DNA of 41,061 bases from Candidatus Iainarchaeum sp. (GTDB lineage Archaea > Iainarchaeota > Iainarchaeia > Iainarchaeales > Iainarchaeaceae), in contig JAWANB010000002.1 of assembly GCA_038895675.1 (NCBI GenBank), positions 1 to 41,061 of the forward strand, given 5' to 3'. The notes under the pieces were generated by a model that worked only from the letters and a program-made list of their open reading frames with translations, was not told the origin of the DNA and did no database searches. Below are positions 1 to 18,140 of this stretch, piece by piece; position 1 is the first letter of the stretch, and each line of letters starts with the position of its first letter. The position numbers and the translations under genes are program-made.

Positions 1-455
1 ATAGCTAATCTGGCTTTTCCTGTTTTTACATATTCTTCCATTAAGTTTGGTATTGGTGGTATCCAATTTGGATCTCTTTTTTTCATATAACCTACGTATT
101 CTTGTGCCATTCCTGAAGCAGCTGCACAAAAAGGGCAAGAAAAATCAGTAAAAATTACAATTGTTACTGGTGCATCAGATTTACCAATGACAGGCCCTTC
201 GTCAGCAAGACTTTTTAAATATGATTCAGCGTCTTTTATAATATCTTCGTTTCCGGTAGTTGTATTTTTTTCATTTATTTCTTGTGTCGTTTCTATTTTT
301 ATTTTTTCTATGTTTTTTGCTATTGTTGTTAATTTTCCTGTTATGTCATTGCCAAGCATTACTATTGGTGTTGCGATAATTAGCGCTGCTATGATTATTG
401 CTATTGGTGTGTAGTATTTTTCGGTTCTTTCTTCTTTTTTATGTTTTTCTTCCAA
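1..455 (-). CDS. Membrane-anchored DsbA/thioredoxin-fold thiol:disulfide oxidoreductase (3' end lies outside the window)
   Basis: My own minus-strand translation; the gene is absent from the ORF track because it runs off the window edge. It reads ...YYTPIAIIIAALIIATPIV (TM anchor) ... GKSDAPVTIVIFTDFSCPFCAAASGMAQEY, with a CPFC redox motif in the usual DsbA context. A probable TTG start at 455 sits about 8 nt after GGAGG, but the start is uncertain. Confidence 0.6.
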   Translation of the reverse strand, partial: MEEKHKKEERTEKYYTPIAIIIAALIIATPIVMLGNDITGKLTTIAKNIEKIKIETTQEINEKNTTTGNEDIIKDAESYLKSLADEGPVIGKSDAPVTIVIFTDFSCPFCAAASGMAQEYVGYMKKRDPNWIPPIPNLMEEYVKTGKARLA

Positions 456-740
456 ATCTATTCCTCCTTTGAAAATTTTGGAAATTGTTTTATTATTTTG
501 TTTTTAGAAAAATATTTAAAGTAGCTTATTTGTTTAGGTTTATGTTTTTGACAAGTCTTTTAAAGTCTTTTAATTTGTCTTGTCTTTGTAGAATTCCGCT
601 TTTTAGGCATTATTAGTCTTTCAATCCTTTTTTTGCCCTTGGTTTTAGAGTCGTTTTTCAAGTTTTTTTTGTTTGTTAGTATTGTTTTTGTTTTTTTTAA
701 GTCGTTTTTACAGAGTCTTTTGTTTTGCTTTAATTTGTTT

Positions 741-1538
741 TTATTTTTGTTCTTCTGTTTTTATTTTTGCTTTGGTTCCTAATTGTAATTCTGTTTCTCC
801 TCTGTTTTCTCTAACGTATGCATTTTCTATTATGATTTCTTTTCCTTCTCCTATTTTTTCTATTTCTTGTGTTTTTTCGTTCCATGCTATTGCTTTGATT
901 TCTTGGTCTTGTTGTGCTATTATGAATTTTAGTAATTCTCCTTTTCTGTCTTCTTTTTGGAATTCTCTTTTTTCTGTTATTTGTTTTATTTTTGCTTTTA
1001 TTTTCACGTTATTCATTCCTGCTTTCAAGTCGCTTATTTTTGTTTCTGTTTCTTTTTCTTCTCCTATTTTTTCTATTGTGCTGTTGTAGTTCATGTTTAT
1101 TTGTTTTTCTCCTTTGTATTCTGTGATTTTTATGTTTGTGAGTTTTATTATGTCTCCTTCTTTTAGTTTGTTGGTTTCGTATTTTTCTATTTCTTTGTTC
1201 CATAGTGTTAGTCTTGTTTGGCCTGTTTCGTCTTTCAGGTAAATGTTTTGTATTTTTCCTTTGTTTCCTTTTGTTTCAAATTCTTTTGGTTCAAATATTT
1301 TTGTGATAGTGGCTTTTAGGTCTATGTTTTTCATTCCTGTTTTTAGTTCTGTTATTTTTGGTGTTTCGTTTTCTTCCATGATTTTTACTTGTAGTTCTCT
1401 TGCTACTATTATTGCTGCTCCTGTTTCTGTTAGTAGTCCTGAAAACTTGTTTTTTTTTGTGTGAATTAGTTCAAGTATTTCTTCTTTGGTTTTTCCTGTT
1501 TTTGTTGCTATTTTGTTTATTATTTCTTCTGTTTCCAT
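741..1538 (-). CDS. Replication protein A / replication factor A-like ssDNA-binding protein (multiple OB folds)
   Basis: 265 aa. The N-terminal helical module (KEEILELIHTKKNKFSGLLTETGAAIIVARELQV) is typical of archaeal RPA. It is followed by repeated OB-like blocks (IYLKDETGQTRLTLWNKE; IIAQQDQEIKAIAWNEK). The gene is divergent from radA. Confidence 0.7.
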   Translation of the reverse strand: METEEIINKIATKTGKTKEEILELIHTKKNKFSGLLTETGAAIIVARELQVKIMEENETPKITELKTGMKNIDLKATITKIFEPKEFETKGNKGKIQNIYLKDETGQTRLTLWNKEIEKYETNKLKEGDIIKLTNIKITEYKGEKQINMNYNSTIEKIGEEKETETKISDLKAGMNNVKIKAKIKQITEKREFQKEDRKGELLKFIIAQQDQEIKAIAWNEKTQEIEKIGEGKEIIIENAYVRENRGETELQLGTKAKIKTEEQK

Positions 1539-1678
1539 TTTCTCACTTTTTTTTGCACTGGCATTTTGGTTGGTTACTTATTTAAGAATTTGGGCGTGGG
1601 TTTTTTATTAGCATAAGGCATTGAGCGGCCAAAGCCAATTGGCTAGTGCTTAGAAAGCCTTTTGTCGGAGGTTTTTTT

Positions 1679-2638
1679 ATGGCGAAAGATAAAGAAATAA
1701 AAGAAGTTGAGGATTTGCCCGGTGTAGGTCCTCAGGCTGCTGAAAAGCTTATTAATGCTGGTTATAAGACTCTTGAGTCTATTGCTGTTGCTTCTCCTCT
1801 TGAGTTAATGGAAATTGCTGGTTTGGGTGAGGGCACTGCTACTAAGGCTATTAATGCTGCGCGTGATGCTCTTGAAATGGGTTTTGAGTCTGCTGCGGAT
1901 ATTGCTGAGAAGCGTAAGCATGTTGGTAGGCTTACTACTGGTAGTAAGGAAGTTGATAATCTCTTGGGCGGTGGTATTGAGACTCAGAGCATTACTGAGA
2001 TTTATGGTAAATTTGCTAGTGGTAAAACTCAGTGGTGTTTTCAAACTGCTGTTACTGTTCAATTGCCTGTAGAAAAAGGCGGTCTTGATGGTGCTTGTCT
2101 TTACATTGATTCTGAGAATAGTTTTAGGCCTGAGAGAATTCAGGCTATTGCCGAGGCTCAGGGTCTTGATCCTGAAAAGGTTTTGCAGAACATTTTTGTT
2201 GCGAGAGCTTATAATAGTGATCATCAAATTTTGCTTGCTGAAAAGGCAAACGAGTTGATTAAGGAGAAGAACATCAAGTTGATTATTGTTGATTCTTTGA
2301 CTTCTCAGTTCAGGTCTGAGTTTGTTGGTAGAGGCACTCTTGCAGAGAGACAGCAAAAACTCAATAAGCATATGAGGACTTTGCAGAAGCTTGCTGAGAT
2401 GTATAATATTGTTGTTTTAGTGACTAATCAAGTTTTGGAAAGGCCTGATGTTTTGTTTGGCGATCCTACTGCTCCTATAGGTGGTAATATTGTGGGGCAC
2501 GCGAGCAAGACAAGGCTTTATTTGAGGAAAAGTAAGGATGATAAGAGAGTGGCAAAACTTGTTGATAGTCCTCATTTGCCTGATGGTGAGGCGATTTATA
2601 GGGTGACAGAGAGGGGCATTGAGGATGTAGAGGATTAA
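1679..2638 (+). CDS. radA: DNA repair and recombination protein RadA
   Basis: N-terminal HhH ([17 protein letters not shown]), Walker [10 protein letters not shown], Walker B LIIVDS, and a C-terminal [17 protein letters not shown]. The ATG at 1679 is preceded by GGAGGT; the track ORF starts at an upstream GTG (1646). Confidence 0.95.
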
Positions 2639-2747
2639 ATCCTCTTTATTTTCTTTTTTTTAGGTTGTAGTTTTCGTTTTTGAGTTTACTTTGTTTGTTT
2701 TTTTGTACAAATAATCTTTTTATATGCTTGTTTATTCATATTTGAGC

Positions 2748-3542
2748 ATGAACAAGCAGAAAGTTTACAAGGGTATTTTGAAGGGTATTAGTGAAAAGGG
2801 TGCTTTGGTTTTTTTGGTTATTGATCCTCCTAACCAGAGTCCTTTGTTGGCTGGGAAAATTTCTAAGATTGCCGAGGAAGTCGGTGTTGATGCTGTTTGT
2901 GTTGGTGGTTCTGTTGGTGCGCAAGGTGAACTTTTGGATAGTACTATTCTTCAGATAAAGCAGAATTGCTCTTTGCCTGTTATTCTTTTTCCTGGTAATA
3001 TTGCAAGCATTAGTAAGCATGCTGATGCTATTTATTTTATGTACATGCTTAATAGTACTGATCCTTATTATATTTCTGGTGCTCAAATAGCTTCTGCTTA
3101 TCCTATTAAAAGAACAGGGCTTGAGGTTATTTCTACTTCTTATATTATTGTTGAGCCTGGCAGGGCTGTGGGTTGGGTTGGTAGGGCTCAGCCTATCCCT
3201 CGTGATTTGCCTTACTTGGCTGGGATTTCTGCTCTTGCTGGTCAATACATGGGTTCTCAGTTAGTTATTTTGGAGTCTGGTGGCGGTTCTGATTCTCCTG
3301 CTCCGCCGGAAATGATTTCTTATGCTAAAAGTCTTATTGAGGTGCCTTTGGTTGTTGCTGGTGGTGTTAGAGATGAGAAGCTTGCTTTTGAGTGTGTAAA
3401 GGCTGGTGCTGACATTGTTCATATAGGAACTGCTATTGAGGATCATTCTGATGACCTTTCTAAAGCCAAGTCGGTTTTGCAAAAAATAGTTGAGGCTGTA
3501 AGAAAAGCCGGTTTTGAAAAGCTTTCTAGTGCCAAGCGTTGA
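2748..3542 (+). CDS. Geranylgeranylglyceryl phosphate synthase (PcrB/GGGPS family)
   Basis: VIDPPNQ, VGGS, ILFPGN, YFMYMLNS.DPYYISGAQ, ESGGGS and VAGGVRD blocks are typical of GGGPS. The start could be 2724 or 2748. Confidence 0.8.
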   Translation: MNKQKVYKGILKGISEKGALVFLVIDPPNQSPLLAGKISKIAEEVGVDAVCVGGSVGAQGELLDSTILQIKQNCSLPVILFPGNIASISKHADAIYFMYMLNSTDPYYISGAQIASAYPIKRTGLEVISTSYIIVEPGRAVGWVGRAQPIPRDLPYLAGISALAGQYMGSQLVILESGGGSDSPAPPEMISYAKSLIEVPLVVAGGVRDEKLAFECVKAGADIVHIGTAIEDHSDDLSKAKSVLQKIVEAVRKAGFEKLSSAKR

Positions 3543-3543
3543 T

Positions 3544-4419
3544 TCAGATTTTTTTTGTTATTTTTATTAATTCTTTTATTGGGTCTTGTTCTGCTTTCCA
3601 GCCAATGCTTTCTATTTTTTGTGTTGAGTAGTTTCTTTCAGCTTGCATTCTTTGTATGTATGCTTTGTTTATGTCTTTTGATATTTTCAGTATTTGGTTT
3701 ATTTCTGCAATTGTCATTCCTAACCATAATGGTATTTTTTTTACTTTTTTCATTCCGAGTTCTTTTCTTATTGTGTTCACTAGTTCTTCTAATGTTATTT
3801 TTTTTGGATGTGCTATTATGAAAGTTTCTCCATAACAATTTTCATTGTTGCAACAAAACTCGAATGCTTTTGCCGTGTCTTTTGCTGTTATCATTTGCCA
3901 AATGTTTTTGCCTTGTCCTACTATTGGGTAATTTTTTTTTATTTTTTCTATTATTTTTTTCCAGTATTCATTTTCTCCTACTATGATTGCTGGTCTCAAT
4001 ATTGTTATGTGAAACAATTCTTGTCTTTCTTGGACTTTTTTTTCTGCTTCGTACTTGCTTTTTTCATACTTTGTTTCTGGTTTTGGTTGTGTTGTTTCAT
4101 CTTTTAGTCCTGGTTGTAATCCGTAGACTCCTGCTGTGCTTGCGTATATGAATTGGTCTATTTTTGCTTCTTCTGCTGCTTCTAAGCAGTTTTCTGTTCC
4201 TTTGACGTTTATTTCCCAAAGGTCGTTGGCATTTTCGTTTAGTTGTGCTGCCAAGTGAATTACTATTTTGCATCCTTTGAATGCTTTTTTTAGGTTTTCT
4301 TTGTCCATTATATTGTTTTTTTCTTTTGTGCATTCTACTATTTCGTGTCCTTTTTCTTGTAAGTTTTTTGTTAGTATTTTTCCTATCATGCCGTTGCTTC
4401 CTGTTATTGCTATTCTCAT
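3544..4419 (-). CDS. NAD-dependent epimerase/dehydratase (SDR family)
   Basis: N-terminal Rossmann motif ITGSNGMIGKIL and catalytic YxxxK (YEKSK). Confidence 0.8.
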   Translation of the reverse strand: MRIAITGSNGMIGKILTKNLQEKGHEIVECTKEKNNIMDKENLKKAFKGCKIVIHLAAQLNENANDLWEINVKGTENCLEAAEEAKIDQFIYASTAGVYGLQPGLKDETTQPKPETKYEKSKYEAEKKVQERQELFHITILRPAIIVGENEYWKKIIEKIKKNYPIVGQGKNIWQMITAKDTAKAFEFCCNNENCYGETFIIAHPKKITLEELVNTIRKELGMKKVKKIPLWLGMTIAEINQILKISKDINKAYIQRMQAERNYSTQKIESIGWKAEQDPIKELIKITKKI

Positions 4420-15290: not shown

Positions 15291-15714
15291 TTTTTTCCTC
15301 TTTGTTTAGTGTTTTTTCTATTTCTTTTGCTTTAGTATAAAGTAGTTTTTCTCCTTGTGGTGTTATTGTTCTGCCTTTCTTGTCTTTTTTTACGAGTTTT
15401 TCTTTTTCTAGTGTTTGTAGGCAGACTCTAATTATTTTTCCACTTGCTTTTTTTTTGTGCTCTGGTTTTACCCCTCTGTTTTGTCTTCCGCCGTAATATG
15501 CTCTCAGGGCTCCTGTTCCTAATGCTCCTTCTTTGTAAATTCTGTATAGTATGCTTGCCATTCTTAGGTAGAACCAGTCTGGGTTGTTTGGTGCTCTTTG
15601 TCTGTTTTGGCCTGTTTTAACATACTTTGTGAATTCTGGTTTTTTTATTTTTGTTTTGAATTCTTCTGCTACTTTTTTTAGTAATTCGTCTATTGGTACG
15701 TCGTATATTCCCAT
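15283..15714 (-). CDS. rps19e: 30S ribosomal protein S19e
   Basis: VPIDELLKKVAEEFK ... PDWFYLRMASILYRIYKEG.LGTGALRAYYGGRQNRG ... IIRVCLQTLEK. The ATG at 15714 is preceded by GGGTG; the track ORF extends to 15759. Confidence 0.9.
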   Translation of the reverse strand: MGIYDVPIDELLKKVAEEFKTKIKKPEFTKYVKTGQNRQRAPNNPDWFYLRMASILYRIYKEGALGTGALRAYYGGRQNRGVKPEHKKKASGKIIRVCLQTLEKEKLVKKDKKGRTITPQGEKLLYTKAKEIEKTLNKEEKNE

Positions 15715-16079
15715 TTGTACACCCTTTTGCCTGTTTGTTTTAATCCCCTTTCGGGGCAAACTGGCTTTGTTTTATTCCGTCTTTTTACGGAAAAACTTCC
15801 AATTCTTTTTAAAATTAGAAGCTTATTTAGTTGTGCTTTAATAATGTTTAAAAACGTGTTGCTTGACTTTTTCGGCTTGTGTTTTTCTTACTTGCTTTTT
15901 GTTAAGTCGTTCTTGTTTAATTGTTTTTGTCGTTGATTTTGTTAGGTAGTTTGTTTGCGTGTTAAATTTTTTATTTTTGCAAACCTCGGTCTTTATGAAA
16001 CCTTGTTTTTTTTTTGAAATCGTTTATTTTGGCGATTAAAGGCAAATTTTTAAATGAATTGTTGATTAGTGGTTTTTAG

Positions 16080-16115
16080 GTCTAGACGATTATGAAAATT
16101 TCTACTATTGTAGAT
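16080..16115 (+). CRISPR. Solitary, intact Cas12a-type (type V-A) CRISPR repeat (R1)
   Basis: The sequence is GTCTAGACGATTATGAAAATTTCTACTATTGTAGAT. Its 3' 19 nt (AATTTCTACTATTGTAGAT) match the conserved Cas12a crRNA handle, with a perfect TCTAC/GTAGA stem. An AT-rich, leader-like sequence precedes it, and no repeat follows within spacer distance. Confidence 0.8.
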
Positions 16116-16145
16116 GAAAAATGTTATTGTTGTGTGGCTCAGTTA

Positions 16146-16790
16146 TTACTGGCTCAATCTTGATTTTTTTATTTGTTCTAGTAATTGTTTTTTCTTTTTT
16201 AAAAAGTCCCTATAATTTATTCCTAAATATTTTTCAGAATCATTTACATTAAATTTTCTTATAGTATCTGTAAGTTCTTTTCCAAATTCTTCTTTTTTGA
16301 AAGTTTTTAATAATTGGAAATATTTTTTGAAATTAATAGGCGCATAAATTAGTAATGTTAATAAGTCAATTAGGTCTTTCTGGCCTTTGGTCGTATTTTG
16401 TCTTTCAATTTCTGCTCCTTGTTTAAGTATCAAAAGAGCTTCGCACGAGACTGTTTTTATTCCTTCAATTAATACTTTTTCTTTAAGTAAATACTCAATC
16501 GGAATAGCAAGTTTTGAGTAAAAAGGAACGTAAACGTCAATGTCAAAGCCTTCTAATTTTACTTCGTATTTCTTTAGCCTATCATTTTTTTCTAAATAAT
16601 ATTTTTCTTTTAGTTTTGCGAGTTCTTCAAAATCAACTATTATATCAATGTCTTTGCTTTTATGTTGTTTTGTCCAGAGCCAGACTGCCCAACCGCCAAT
16701 TACAATTACTTGAATTTCTTTTGCCAATTCTTGGAGTTTTTTCCAACTTTCCTCAGTAAGGCTTTCATGCCAAAACTCTTCCTTTCTCAT
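16146..16790 (-). CDS. AbiEii-like nucleotidyltransferase (putative type IV TA toxin)
   Basis: Pol-beta-type NTase motif VIGGWAVWLWTKQHKSKDIDIIV (GG.A...S.DID) followed by FDIDVYVP, with an alpha-helical C-terminal half. The start at 16790 (MRKEEF) overlaps the upstream gene stop as ATGA; the track ORF extends to 16859. Confidence 0.5.
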   Translation of the reverse strand: MRKEEFWHESLTEESWKKLQELAKEIQVIVIGGWAVWLWTKQHKSKDIDIIVDFEELAKLKEKYYLEKNDRLKKYEVKLEGFDIDVYVPFYSKLAIPIEYLLKEKVLIEGIKTVSCEALLILKQGAEIERQNTTKGQKDLIDLLTLLIYAPINFKKYFQLLKTFKKEEFGKELTDTIRKFNVNDSEKYLGINYRDFLKKKKQLLEQIKKSRLSQ

Positions 16791-17356
16791 TGTTCTAACC
16801 CAATTTTTTGTTTCAATGATTTCAAGAATTCTTTTGCATACCACTCTTTTAAATTCCATAGATCAACAAACAATAGATAATTAGAAACAAATTTTGTTTC
16901 AAAAAAAATTTTTGGCTTTGAGAGCACGATCAAATTTGCGGGGCCGTCTTTTTCAGGAAATCTTTTCTTTAATTCAGGCACGTCTTTTTCGTCTGCATAA
17001 ATATAAACTTCACTATAATCAGCAGGAACTTGTTTAAAATTTAGTTTGTAAGCGGTGTAAGCAGTAAAAATTATTTCTGAAGGCATTTGTTTCTCAATTT
17101 CACTTACTGGCATTTCAGCTCTTGTCTTATAAATAACATCTTTTTCAAGATTTCTTTGAGTTGCTAATAAAACAAGTGCTTTTTCTTTGTCAATCAACTT
17201 AAACCCAAATTTTCGCTTTTCAATTGCTCCTATCCTTTCCAAAGGCTTTAATGCATGATTTACAGTGCTCAAAGAAATTTTCATTTTGTTTGCTATTTCT
17301 TTTTGAGTTTTGGCACCTTTCAAAACTTCCAAAATCGCTATTTCAGACTTTAACAT
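16787..17356 (-). CDS. AbiEi-like winged-HTH transcriptional regulator (putative antitoxin)
   Basis: N-terminal wHTH (ILEVLKGAKTQKEIANKMKISLSTVNHALKPLERIGAIEK) plus a C-terminal domain of about 110 aa. It lies directly upstream of the NTase gene and is translationally coupled to it. Confidence 0.5.
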   Translation of the reverse strand: MLKSEIAILEVLKGAKTQKEIANKMKISLSTVNHALKPLERIGAIEKRKFGFKLIDKEKALVLLATQRNLEKDVIYKTRAEMPVSEIEKQMPSEIIFTAYTAYKLNFKQVPADYSEVYIYADEKDVPELKKRFPEKDGPANLIVLSKPKIFFETKFVSNYLLFVDLWNLKEWYAKEFLKSLKQKIGLEQ

Positions 17357-17587
17357 GCTATTAAACTATAAATCAGTTTATTTATAAATATTTCTATAAT
17401 ATTCGAAATTTTTTTAATTGCTTAAAATTTTCTTTTAATTGCCTTAACAACAATAAAAAATCAAATTTATAGTTGAAAAAACATTAAAGCAAAATCTAAA
17501 AGCAACAAATGTTTTATTGATAATTTACTAAAATGTTCAAGTTTTGCTACACTGGCAATCCGCCATAAAATATTTTATAAATTATTT

Positions 17588-17747
17588 ATGAGGTATTTAT
17601 CAAAAGTGATAAAATTGAAAACACTTAACGATGATACGCATCAAATTTGGGGTGATTTTACAAACCAATATAGTCTCCAAAAAACCATAAGGTTTGAGTT
17701 GAAACCTATTGGAAAAACTAGAGAACATATTTTCTACTATTGCAGAT
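17588..17747 (+). pseudogene. cas12a: cas12a (cpf1) 5' fragment fused in frame to a CRISPR half-repeat
   Basis: WGDFTNQYSLQKTIRFELKPIGKTREHI matches the hallmark Cas12a N-terminus (F.N.Y.LSKTLRFEL.P.GKT.E.I). The similarity stops at codon 48 (about 17731), where the sequence becomes TTTCTACTATTGCAGAT. The open frame then runs through the spacer and stops at 17785. Confidence 0.7.
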
Positions 17748-17815
17748 GCGCAATAGGATGCATAACAATAACAGAAGTCGTCTAGACGATTATGAAAATT
17801 TCTACTATTGTATAT
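17731..17815 (+). CRISPR. Degenerate type V-A mini-array: 3' half-repeat, 32-nt spacer, terminal repeat R2
   Basis: 17731-17747 is TTTCTACTATTGCAGAT, 16/17 against the repeat 3' end. The spacer at 17748-17779 is GCGCAATAGGATGCATAACAATAACAGAAGTC. R2 at 17780-17815 is GTCTAGACGATTATGAAAATTTCTACTATTGTATAT, 35/36 against R1. Both degenerate copies carry their mismatch inside the handle stem. Confidence 0.7.
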
Positions 17816-18011
17816 GGTGTGAATTGCATTTTTTGCAGAATTTTTGTTTTAGTTCTTTTGGTATTTTTGCTTTTGTTTTTTTGCTTATTTCTCTTGCTAT
17901 TTCTACGTATCTTTTGCTTCTCTCTGGTTTTTTTTCAAATTCTTGTTCTGCTAATTCAAATAATCGGTATATTCTTTCTAATCCTATTTTTCGTGCTTTT
18001 TCGTGCTTCAT
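17805..18011 (-). CDS. rnp4: RNase P protein component 4 (Rpp21/Rnp4), C-terminally truncated (possible pseudogene)
   Basis: RIYRLFELAEQEF...SKRYVEIAREISKKTKAKIPKELKQKFCKKC matches the Rpp21 N-terminal helices and the first CxxC. The ORF ends 6 residues later, and its last codons plus the stop are supplied by repeat R2. The second CxxC of the zinc ribbon is missing. Confidence 0.65.
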   Translation of the reverse strand: MKHEKARKIGLERIYRLFELAEQEFEKKPERSKRYVEIAREISKKTKAKIPKELKQKFCKKCNSHHIQ

Positions 18012-18050: not shown

Positions 18051-18140
18051 TGCACCCGCCGGGATTTGAACCCGGGCCAAGAGCTTTCTTCAATCTTTCT
18101 TTTTGGAAGGCTCTGATGCTAACCACTACACCACAGGTGC
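18051..18140 (-). tRNA. tRNA-Gly (anticodon TCC) with an 18-nt canonical (37/38) intron
   Basis: Reverse complement: GCACCTG TG GTGT AGTGGTTA GCAT C AGAGC CTTCCA[AAAAGAAAGATTGAAGAA]A GCTCT TGGC CCGGG TTCAAAT CCCGG CGGGTGC A. The intron occupies 18086-18103. The intron GAAG pairs with anticodon-loop CTTC, giving a 4-bp helix flanked by 3-nt bulges (BHB-like). Confidence 0.85.

Follow-up and report, generated by a model that had tools for sequence, protein, structure and literature searches.

Organization of the locus

We analyzed a stretch of 41,061 nucleotides (nt; 41 kb), referred to below as the window, from contig JAWANB010000002.1 (assembly GCA_038895675.1) of Candidatus Iainarchaeum sp., an archaeon of the Diapherotrites (Iainarchaeia). 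Between rpp21 and the S19e gene, it carries one intact and two altered copies of a clustered regularly interspaced short palindromic repeat (CRISPR), the first codons of a cas12a gene, a leader-like segment, and two genes on the other strand, which code for a winged helix-turn-helix (wHTH) protein and a nucleotidyltransferase (NTase) (Table 1). The observations described below support the reading of these features as a remnant type V-A locus within the core-gene neighborhood of a DPANN-like archaeon.

Table 1. Features of the window between the S19e gene and rpp21
Feature	Position	Strand	Evidence or remark
V-A leader-start motif TGCAAACCTCGGTCTTTATGAAAC	15978-16001	+	24/24 identical to locus L006; no cas2 upstream here
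Leader-like segment of the R1 unit, 102 bp from motif to repeat	15978-16079	+	No coding potential
R1, intact solitary 36-nt V-A repeat (single-repeat "empty" array)	16080-16115	+	Sequence GTCTAGACGATTATGAAAATTTCTACTATTGTAGAT
DUF6036-type nucleotidyltransferase, MenT/AbiEii-like predicted fold	16146-16790	-	PF19502 at threshold; AlphaFold2 (AF2) and Foldseek
Winged-helix protein, 189 amino acids, co-operonic with the nucleotidyltransferase	16787-17356	-	HTH_24/MarR hits
Divergent intergenic region, presumed promoters of cas12a and of the wHTH-NTase operon	17357-17587	.	Promoter role presumed
cas12a stump, start codon plus 48 codons	17588-17731	+	TIGR04330, N-termini of structures, identity to L002
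3′ half-repeat fused to the cas12a stump (deletion junction), stem T to C	17731-17747	+	17 nt
Single surviving spacer, 32 nt	17748-17779	+	No match found
R2, terminal repeat with degenerate 3′ end (GTATAT)	17780-17815	+	Adjoins truncated rpp21
Truncated rpp21 (RNase P protein component 4)	17805-18011	-	Partial matches to PF04032 and NF003045

The three repeat copies had been noticed in a first-pass annotation made from the sequence alone. Their positions and mismatches, as well as the offset of 1700 bp between R1 and R2, proved exact. R2 shares 33 consecutive bases with R1 and differs from it by one base in the 3′ stem arm (GTAGAT to GTATAT). The half-copy also differs from R1 by a single base (TTGTAGAT to TTGCAGAT), and 32 nt separate it from R2. 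On the cas12a strand, the remaining array consists only of the half-repeat, one spacer, and R2.

None of 100 dinucleotide shuffles of the window contained a match to the 36-mer with three or fewer mismatches. For the 17-mer, one of the 100 shuffles yielded four matches, so a match this short could arise by chance; what makes the half-copy credible is solely its register with R2 and the context on its left. The handle AAUUUCUACU-loop-GUAGAU, formed by the 3′ 19 nt of the ~36-nt repeat, is perfect in R1 and carries one stem mutation each in R2 and the half-copy. Its hairpin is stable only in R1 (-4.8 kcal/mol, as compared with -0.3 in R2 and -0.1 in the half-copy).

To assign the repeat type, we compared the repeats with arrays that lie physically downstream of V-A cas genes. 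The reference set comprised 11 arrays located after cas12a-cas4-cas1-cas2 operons or, on shorter contigs, after cas1-cas2. All of their repeats are 36 nt long, their consensus sequences are identical to R1 at 24–32 of 36 positions, and their handle (AATTTCTACT-loop-GTAGAT) is the same as that of R1. This bears out the earlier identification of the 36-mer as a V-A repeat. The spacers of these arrays measure 25–34 nt, which places the surviving 32-nt spacer toward the long end of the range. In the nearest Cas12a relative with a long contig (L006, Cas12a 63% identical), cas12a-cas4-cas1-cas2-leader is followed by 18 copies of GTCTAGAAGCTTCTCATAATTTCTACTGTTGTAGAT, identical to R1 at 30 of 36 positions. 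The inverted TCTA...TAGA repeat ends, which are recognised by V-A Cas1 in Francisella (PMC13034035), are present in R1; R2 has lost the one at its 3′ end.

Rfam turned out to be unusable here as a classifier of V-A repeats, since its only CRISPR-DR hit was a 15.6-bit chance match within the wHTH gene. In both gathering and permissive modes, no CRISPR-DR family matched the repeats themselves. The repeat gave 0 hits against viral contigs, and the spacer had no match in viral contigs, in the window, or in unrelated fetched loci.

The cas12a stump and the deletion junction

A plus-strand open reading frame (ORF) of 65 amino acids (aa; 17588–17785) opens with 48 codons that match positions 3–28 of the TIGR04330 Cas12a equivalog (E = 3.4e-8) as well as the N-termini of solved Cas12a structures (E = 7e-8). 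According to the first-pass annotation, the window contained no cas4, cas1, or cas2 and no full-length cas12a. Searches of the 41 kb with Cas12a, Cas4, Cas1, and Cas2 (tblastn) confirmed this, but the annotation had overlooked the stump: residues 1–48 of Cas12a are encoded in the window, and there is no other cas signal.

An exact-protein look-up with the NTase retrieved a 7.4-kb contig (L002, GCA_038891495.1) of a sibling Diapherotrites metagenome-assembled genome (MAG). In the orientation of the window, its order is S19e, R1, NTase, wHTH, Cas12a, and Cas4. The Cas12a protein, which is named in NCBI as Cas12a of Candidatus Diapherotrites archaeon, has its full length of 1274 aa and all five Pfam domains. 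It had been proposed earlier that related bins be searched for intact cas genes; in this sibling, cas12a-cas4 are indeed intact at the same place.

The sibling contig and the window are 99.78% identical across 3150 bp, and their alignment ends exactly at window position 17731. All 48 residues of the stump are identical to those of the sibling Cas12a (48/48; tblastn hit at 100%), and the divergent intergenic region is 99.8% identical to the region upstream of the intact gene. At the breakpoint, marked here by a slash, the intact gene reads ...GAACATATT/GAAAATGAAGG... (the last six nt before the break being CATATT) and the repeat reads ...GATTATGAAAAT/TTCTAC... (in short form ...TTATGAAAAT/TTCTAC). 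The window combines the two as ...GAACATATT/TTCTACTATTGCAGAT, i.e., CATATT/TTCTAC. A TGAAAAT heptamer is common to both parental breakpoints, and 1 nt of it (T) is left at the junction.

The junction looks like the product of illegitimate (non-homologous) joining and not of repeat-by-repeat recombination. The first-pass annotation had offered the choice between a decaying or rearranged V-A locus and an element that recombined through its repeats. The remnant V-A locus stands, and recombination from repeat to repeat does not: one end of the deletion lies within cas12a (codon 48/49) and the other midway through a repeat. The missing DNA documented by the sibling contig amounts to at least 4.3 kb (its positions 1–4294). 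This contig ends 43 nt past cas4, and the loss would come to ~5.7 kb plus the array if cas1, cas2, and the leader were as in L006.

The same deleted state was observed in GCA_038889715.1. With 6 mismatches and 9 gaps relative to the window over 18.8 kb, it represents a separate assembly.

The 65-aa ORF is a chimera made by the deletion, running from the 48 Cas12a codons through the half-repeat and the spacer into R2. Since the upstream region of the intact cas12a is retained, this ORF may still be transcribed.

The ancestral site and the truncated rpp21

When species-representative genomes were scanned with S19e, two relatives emerged: L009, a Candidatus Iainarchaeum MAG whose S19e is 83% identical, and L010, another archaeon, at 72%. 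Each has a full-length rpp21 (about 101 aa, ...CKKC...x22...CKEC...) immediately upstream of S19e, and the rpp21-S19e site holds no NTase, wHTH, cas12a, or repeats. The adjacency of these two core genes is thus the ancestral state. Starting on the FtsY side, nucleotide homology of both loci to the window reaches as far as 17826, and it begins again at 15827. The island therefore occupies ~15828–17825, with the 3′ end of rpp21 replaced. Its left edge falls somewhere between 15828 and 15977; local alignment of 15828–16079 with the rpp21-S19e spacer of L009 did not rise above shuffles (z = 1.5).

In the window, the rpp21 ORF comprises 65 genuine codons followed by three codons and a stop read from R2. 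It covers positions 1–56 of 90 in PF04032 (Rpr2) and 12–74 of 121 in NF003045 (PRK03954). The last ~35 codons are gone and, of the four-Cys zinc ribbon, only the first CxxC is kept. A terminal CRISPR repeat has replaced this end of the gene, including the second CxxC.

Four contigs carry the 68-aa truncated product; one of them is a Logan contig of SRR27730018 whose end lies within R2. The window, GCA_038889715.1, and this Logan contig all show R2 directly against the truncated rpp21. We searched for the lost 3′ end of rpp21 beside R1 and across the window (six-frame translation, zinc-ribbon pattern, and tblastn with the L009 Rpp21) and found nothing. The break of Logan contig L005 inside R2 was considered as a sign of a long array and rejected, as R1 alone creates a k-mer branch there.

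Probable loss of the island by internal deletion

The observations described above make it very probable that this is a wrecked V-A locus, left by a recent internal deletion of the island between rpp21 and the S19e gene. In its intact state, the island would have started with the leader-start motif, a short leader, and the single repeat R1, with the wHTH and NTase genes on the other strand. These would have been followed by cas12a-cas4-(cas1-cas2-leader)-array, ending in the degenerate terminal repeat R2. Before the deletion, R2 would already have stood in place of the last rpp21 codons. Through the deletion, cas12a would then have become fused at its codon 48 to the midpoint of a repeat in the downstream array; this repeat would be the penultimate one if R2 is terminal. 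The effector, the adaptation genes, and all spacers but one would have been lost in the process. The deleted stretch presumably held cas1, cas2, a second leader, and a longer array.

By itself, the remnant cannot give immunity, because there is no Cas12a to process or use its RNA and the handle stems of both downstream repeats are broken.

Several points weigh against this account. The deletion leaves the origin of the upstream R1 unit unexplained. Additionally, the single nucleotide left of the shared heptamer is unlike the product of a simple microhomology-mediated deletion. The cas1, cas2, leader, and array of this lineage have not been seen, and the sibling Cas4 is on record on one contig only; for this reason, both the deletion size and the extent of the lost array are estimates. 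Finally, all of the sequences are metagenome assemblies.

The leader-start motif and the R1 unit

R1 is identical in the intact sibling and therefore predates the deletion. It belongs to a complete unit of a leader and one repeat, which is not a product of the deletion.

The unit opens with the motif TGCAAACCTCGGTCTTTATGAAAC. In L006, the same 24 nt (24/24, at 15636) begin 4 nt past the cas2 stop. L008 (19440; 3 nt after cas2) and L037 (11798) share the first 16 nt of the motif. A metagenome scan with TGCAAACCTCGGTCTTYAT returned seven loci (L030–L036), whose Cas2 proteins are 43–87% identical to that of L006. The motif is present in all seven, 0–13 nt past the cas2 stop and 113–212 bp ahead of the first V-A array repeat. 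With two changes, it also occurs in two Candidatus Iainarchaeum loci (L039/L040, 11821). In the form TGCAAACCTCGGTCTT (16–19 nt as TGCAAACCTCGGTCTT(Y)AT), it stands at the cas2/leader boundary in 13 other loci; all canonical V-A loci examined that include this junction have it after cas2. It is strongly conserved in V-A loci of bacteria and archaea, despite Cas2 proteins that are only 43–50% identical.

It is worth stressing that the motif is an empirical feature of this analysis and not a published V-A criterion; we found no mention of it as a text string in the searchable literature. It gave 0 hits against viral contigs. We also sought V-A Cas1 in a plasmid collection to check the motif in cultured bacteria and found none, all hits being below 30% identity and of other types.

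The distance from motif to repeat is 102 bp in the window, close to the 113–212 bp measured in nine canonical loci. The R1 leader lacks the conserved blocks of the 188–212-bp leaders found in its closest relatives. A second single-repeat unit was observed in L037 (5841–12032), where a complete V-A operon (Cas12a of 1369 aa, cas4, cas1, and cas2) is followed by the motif, a leader, one repeat, and no spacers. Together, the R1 unit and L037 demonstrate the natural existence of "empty arrays" made of a leader and a single repeat.

In vitro, integration by V-A Cas1-Cas2 needs the repeat plus no more than about three leader nucleotides (PMC13034035), and R1 could for this reason accept spacers in the intact strain. 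Since so few leader nucleotides seem to matter, the published in vitro work leaves the motif unaccounted for. A conserved Cas protein might read the motif as a docking or regulatory site. We consider it possible, although doubtful, that the motif is an undescribed, functionally required cis-element of V-A arrays and that, in the intact strain, the R1 unit is not debris but a live second array, either ready for acquisition or regulatory. As a strongly conserved non-coding element at the start of V-A leaders, the motif offers a testable handle on array regulation or leader recognition.

Two of the comparison loci have features of their own. In L008 (9399–17527), a 1257-aa protein without a Pfam hit sits between cas12a and cas4, and a Csa3_N/HFX_2341_N-like gene lies immediately upstream of cas12a. 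L039 and L040 (12058 onward) have identical Cas4 (Candidatus Iainarchaeum sp.) and differ in their arrays (16 vs at least 41 repeats) and in the dominant repeat variants (...CTGTTGTAGAT vs ...CTGTGGTAGAT).

Alternative explanations

Two routes may be proposed by which R1 and R2 came to bracket the island. A circular V-A element with the wHTH-NTase genes, the cas operon, a leader, and a repeat might have recombined through this repeat with a resident orphan mini-array. Equivalently, the island might have been duplicated in tandem, after which the first cas set was lost. Both routes are compatible with the later deletion and, taken jointly, we regard them as a tentative answer with the odds against it. 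R1 has its own complete leader and motif but no cas2. Its motif extension TATGAAAC matches without any difference that of L006, which represents the closest Cas12a lineage, so the R1 unit and the resident cas12a belong to one V-A sublineage. The cassette located ahead of cas12a follows R1 within 30 bp, and the repeats are the only long identities on offer for homologous recombination. However, no circular form, second junction copy, or donor element was seen, and the sibling contig ends before the downstream leader of the intact strain. The wHTH-NTase cassette occurs alone elsewhere, so it may have been inserted separately, and the absence of the relatives' conserved blocks from the short R1 leader also speaks against these routes.

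R1 might instead be a regulatory mini-CRISPR of the CreR/CreA kind. In the intact strain, a crRNA-like (CRISPR RNA-like) transcript would guide Cas12a to repress a promoter, i.e., the cas genes would be autoregulated. V-A CreRs of a similar general layout were described in Moraxella bovoculi and about a dozen other V-A loci, in which a TTTA-flanked site at the cas12a promoter is the pairing partner of the pseudo-spacer (bioRxiv 10.1101/2023.03.10.532045). R1 resembles the CreR of M. bovoculi in being a lone repeat that precedes cas12a and retains the crRNA handle; in R1 this handle is perfect, and the repeat is conserved in the intact sibling. Unlike that CreR, it lies 1.5 kb from cas12a with two genes between them, is aimed at the 3′ end of the NTase gene, and has a full array-type leader with the post-cas2 motif, which is not reported for known CreRs. 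The sequence after R1 (GAAAAATGTTATTGTTGTGTGG...) has no partial match flanked by a protospacer-adjacent motif (PAM) at the cas12a promoter or elsewhere in the window; its best seed run, 9 nt with CTAT as the "PAM", is at chance level. An upstream solitary repeat was not found in L006, L007, or L008. These differences make a CreR-like role improbable. The sequence after R1, the real spacer, and the sequence after R2 were all compared with the whole window as candidate guides, and only chance-level matches emerged.

Even less can be said for the possibility that the remnant functions in trans, with another Cas12a of the genome using R1 and/or the unit of half-repeat, spacer, and R2, which we find very hard to believe. 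A Cas12a crRNA needs only the 3′ ~19 nt of the repeat plus a spacer, which is the layout of 17731–17779, and R1 is intact. The stems of the half-repeat and R2 are nevertheless broken, as their near-zero folding energies indicate. There is no second cas12a within the window, the Cas12a of this lineage is on record once (P0001, one contig), and no target of the spacer was detected in viral contigs or in the window.

Least credible is an assembly artefact, in which the R1...R2 layout and the cas12a/half-repeat junction would be chimeric joins by an assembler collapsing CRISPR repeats: the 33 bases shared by R1 and R2, the break of L005 (k = 31) inside R2, and the metagenomic origin of all the data would allow it, but a repeat collapse cannot join unique cas12a sequence to a repeat with a 1-nt overlap as at 17731, the identical structure recurs in the second, non-identical assembly GCA_038889715.1, the look-up reported further contigs of 50–200 kb with the same neighbors, and the R1 side is reproduced in the sibling.

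Neighboring genes

The genes bracketed by R1 and R2 had been described earlier simply as non-CRISPR genes. They are indeed unrelated to CRISPR; more precisely, they form an independent two-gene cassette that also occurs elsewhere in DPANN without cas genes. The wHTH and NTase genes overlap by 4 bp, and an alternative start of the latter at 16859 would give a protein of 237 aa. Among the best 120 hits listed, the NTase family is found in Diapherotrites and Micrarchaeota at 52–78% identity. The pair of the 189-aa protein and the NTase was also observed in L027 (7489–8699), L028 (7489–8699), and L029 (418–1628), in unrelated neighborhoods that contain no cas genes and no repeats. Nucleotide identity to the window is 72–74%, and homology is confined to the two coding regions (17356–16164). 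The pair thus moves as a unit between genomic contexts.

The AF2 model of the NTase has a mean confidence (pLDDT, predicted local distance difference test) of 92.8. Its best Foldseek matches are the MenT1 toxin (8an4/8an5) and JHP933 (E = 1e-5 to 2e-4, TM-scores 0.5–0.66). Like AbiE/MenAT pairs, the cassette has an upstream gene for a DNA-binding wHTH protein that overlaps the gene for a ~210-aa NTase, whose predicted fold is nearest to MenT1/JHP933. Unlike them, its NTase matches no AbiE-type model in PADLOC, where the only hit was a weak one to PDC-S09, and no AbiEii family in Pfam, where DUF6036 alone appeared, at threshold; the TM-scores are moderate. At the level of profiles, the protein thus falls outside the AbiEii/MenT families in PADLOC and Pfam, and a sequence search of the PDB returned no family. 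We read the pair as a candidate mobile toxin-antitoxin-like cassette that lies in the island by chance; it may belong to an uncharacterised toxin-antitoxin family of DPANN.

ARAGORN annotates a 90-nt gene on the minus strand (18051–18140) as tRNA-Phe(aaa) and places the anticodon at position 38. Manual inspection instead identifies a tRNA-Gly(UCC) in which position 37 is followed by an intron of ~18 nt (anticodon loop CUUCCAA, stem AGAGC/GCUCU). In L010, a tRNA-Gly(tcc) without an intron is located on the same contig, about 2 kb from rpp21.

Significance and comparison with known systems

In a recent classification, class 2 systems are called rare in archaea, and only II-D is highlighted for DPANN (PMC12669027). 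NCBI annotates Cas12a or V-type Cas4 in MAGs of Diapherotrites, Iainarchaeum, Woesearchaeota, Nanoarchaeota, and Aenigmarchaeota. The first-pass annotation had expected the remnant to bear on the distribution of V-A systems. Because several DPANN lineages already have such annotations, the remnant leaves the known distribution of Cas12a unchanged. It adds a new, well-resolved example of CRISPR loss by deletion, a process known before, and does not represent a novel type of system.

The finding is a modest one for the CRISPR field: the loss of a class 2 system from a reduced DPANN genome, seen at single-base resolution with the intact sibling in hand. It also indicates that V-A islands in these archaea insert beside core genes and can damage them, as with the Rpp21 zinc ribbon lost here. 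The leader-start motif and the truncation of rpp21 by a CRISPR repeat are more interesting than the loss itself; both merit follow-up, as do the single-repeat arrays found in nature.

The window resembles canonical V-A loci (L006 and, in the literature, Francisella novicida U112) in the 36-nt repeat, the handle, the TCTA/TAGA ends, the spacer length, the N-terminus of cas12a, and the leader-start motif; the sibling additionally shares cas4 beside cas12a. Unlike these loci, the window has an effector cut to 48 codons, no adaptation genes, a single spacer, and mutations in both downstream repeat copies. It also differs in the extra leader and single repeat upstream of the operon, and in the unrelated cassette between this unit and cas12a.

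Orphan or degenerate CRISPR arrays left after cas loss are the other obvious comparison. They likewise consist of repeats without cas genes, show a degenerate terminal repeat, and vary between strains in the presence or absence of the cas module. Unlike in such arrays generally, the breakpoint can be placed here at base resolution, since both the stump and a 99.8%-identical intact sibling survive.

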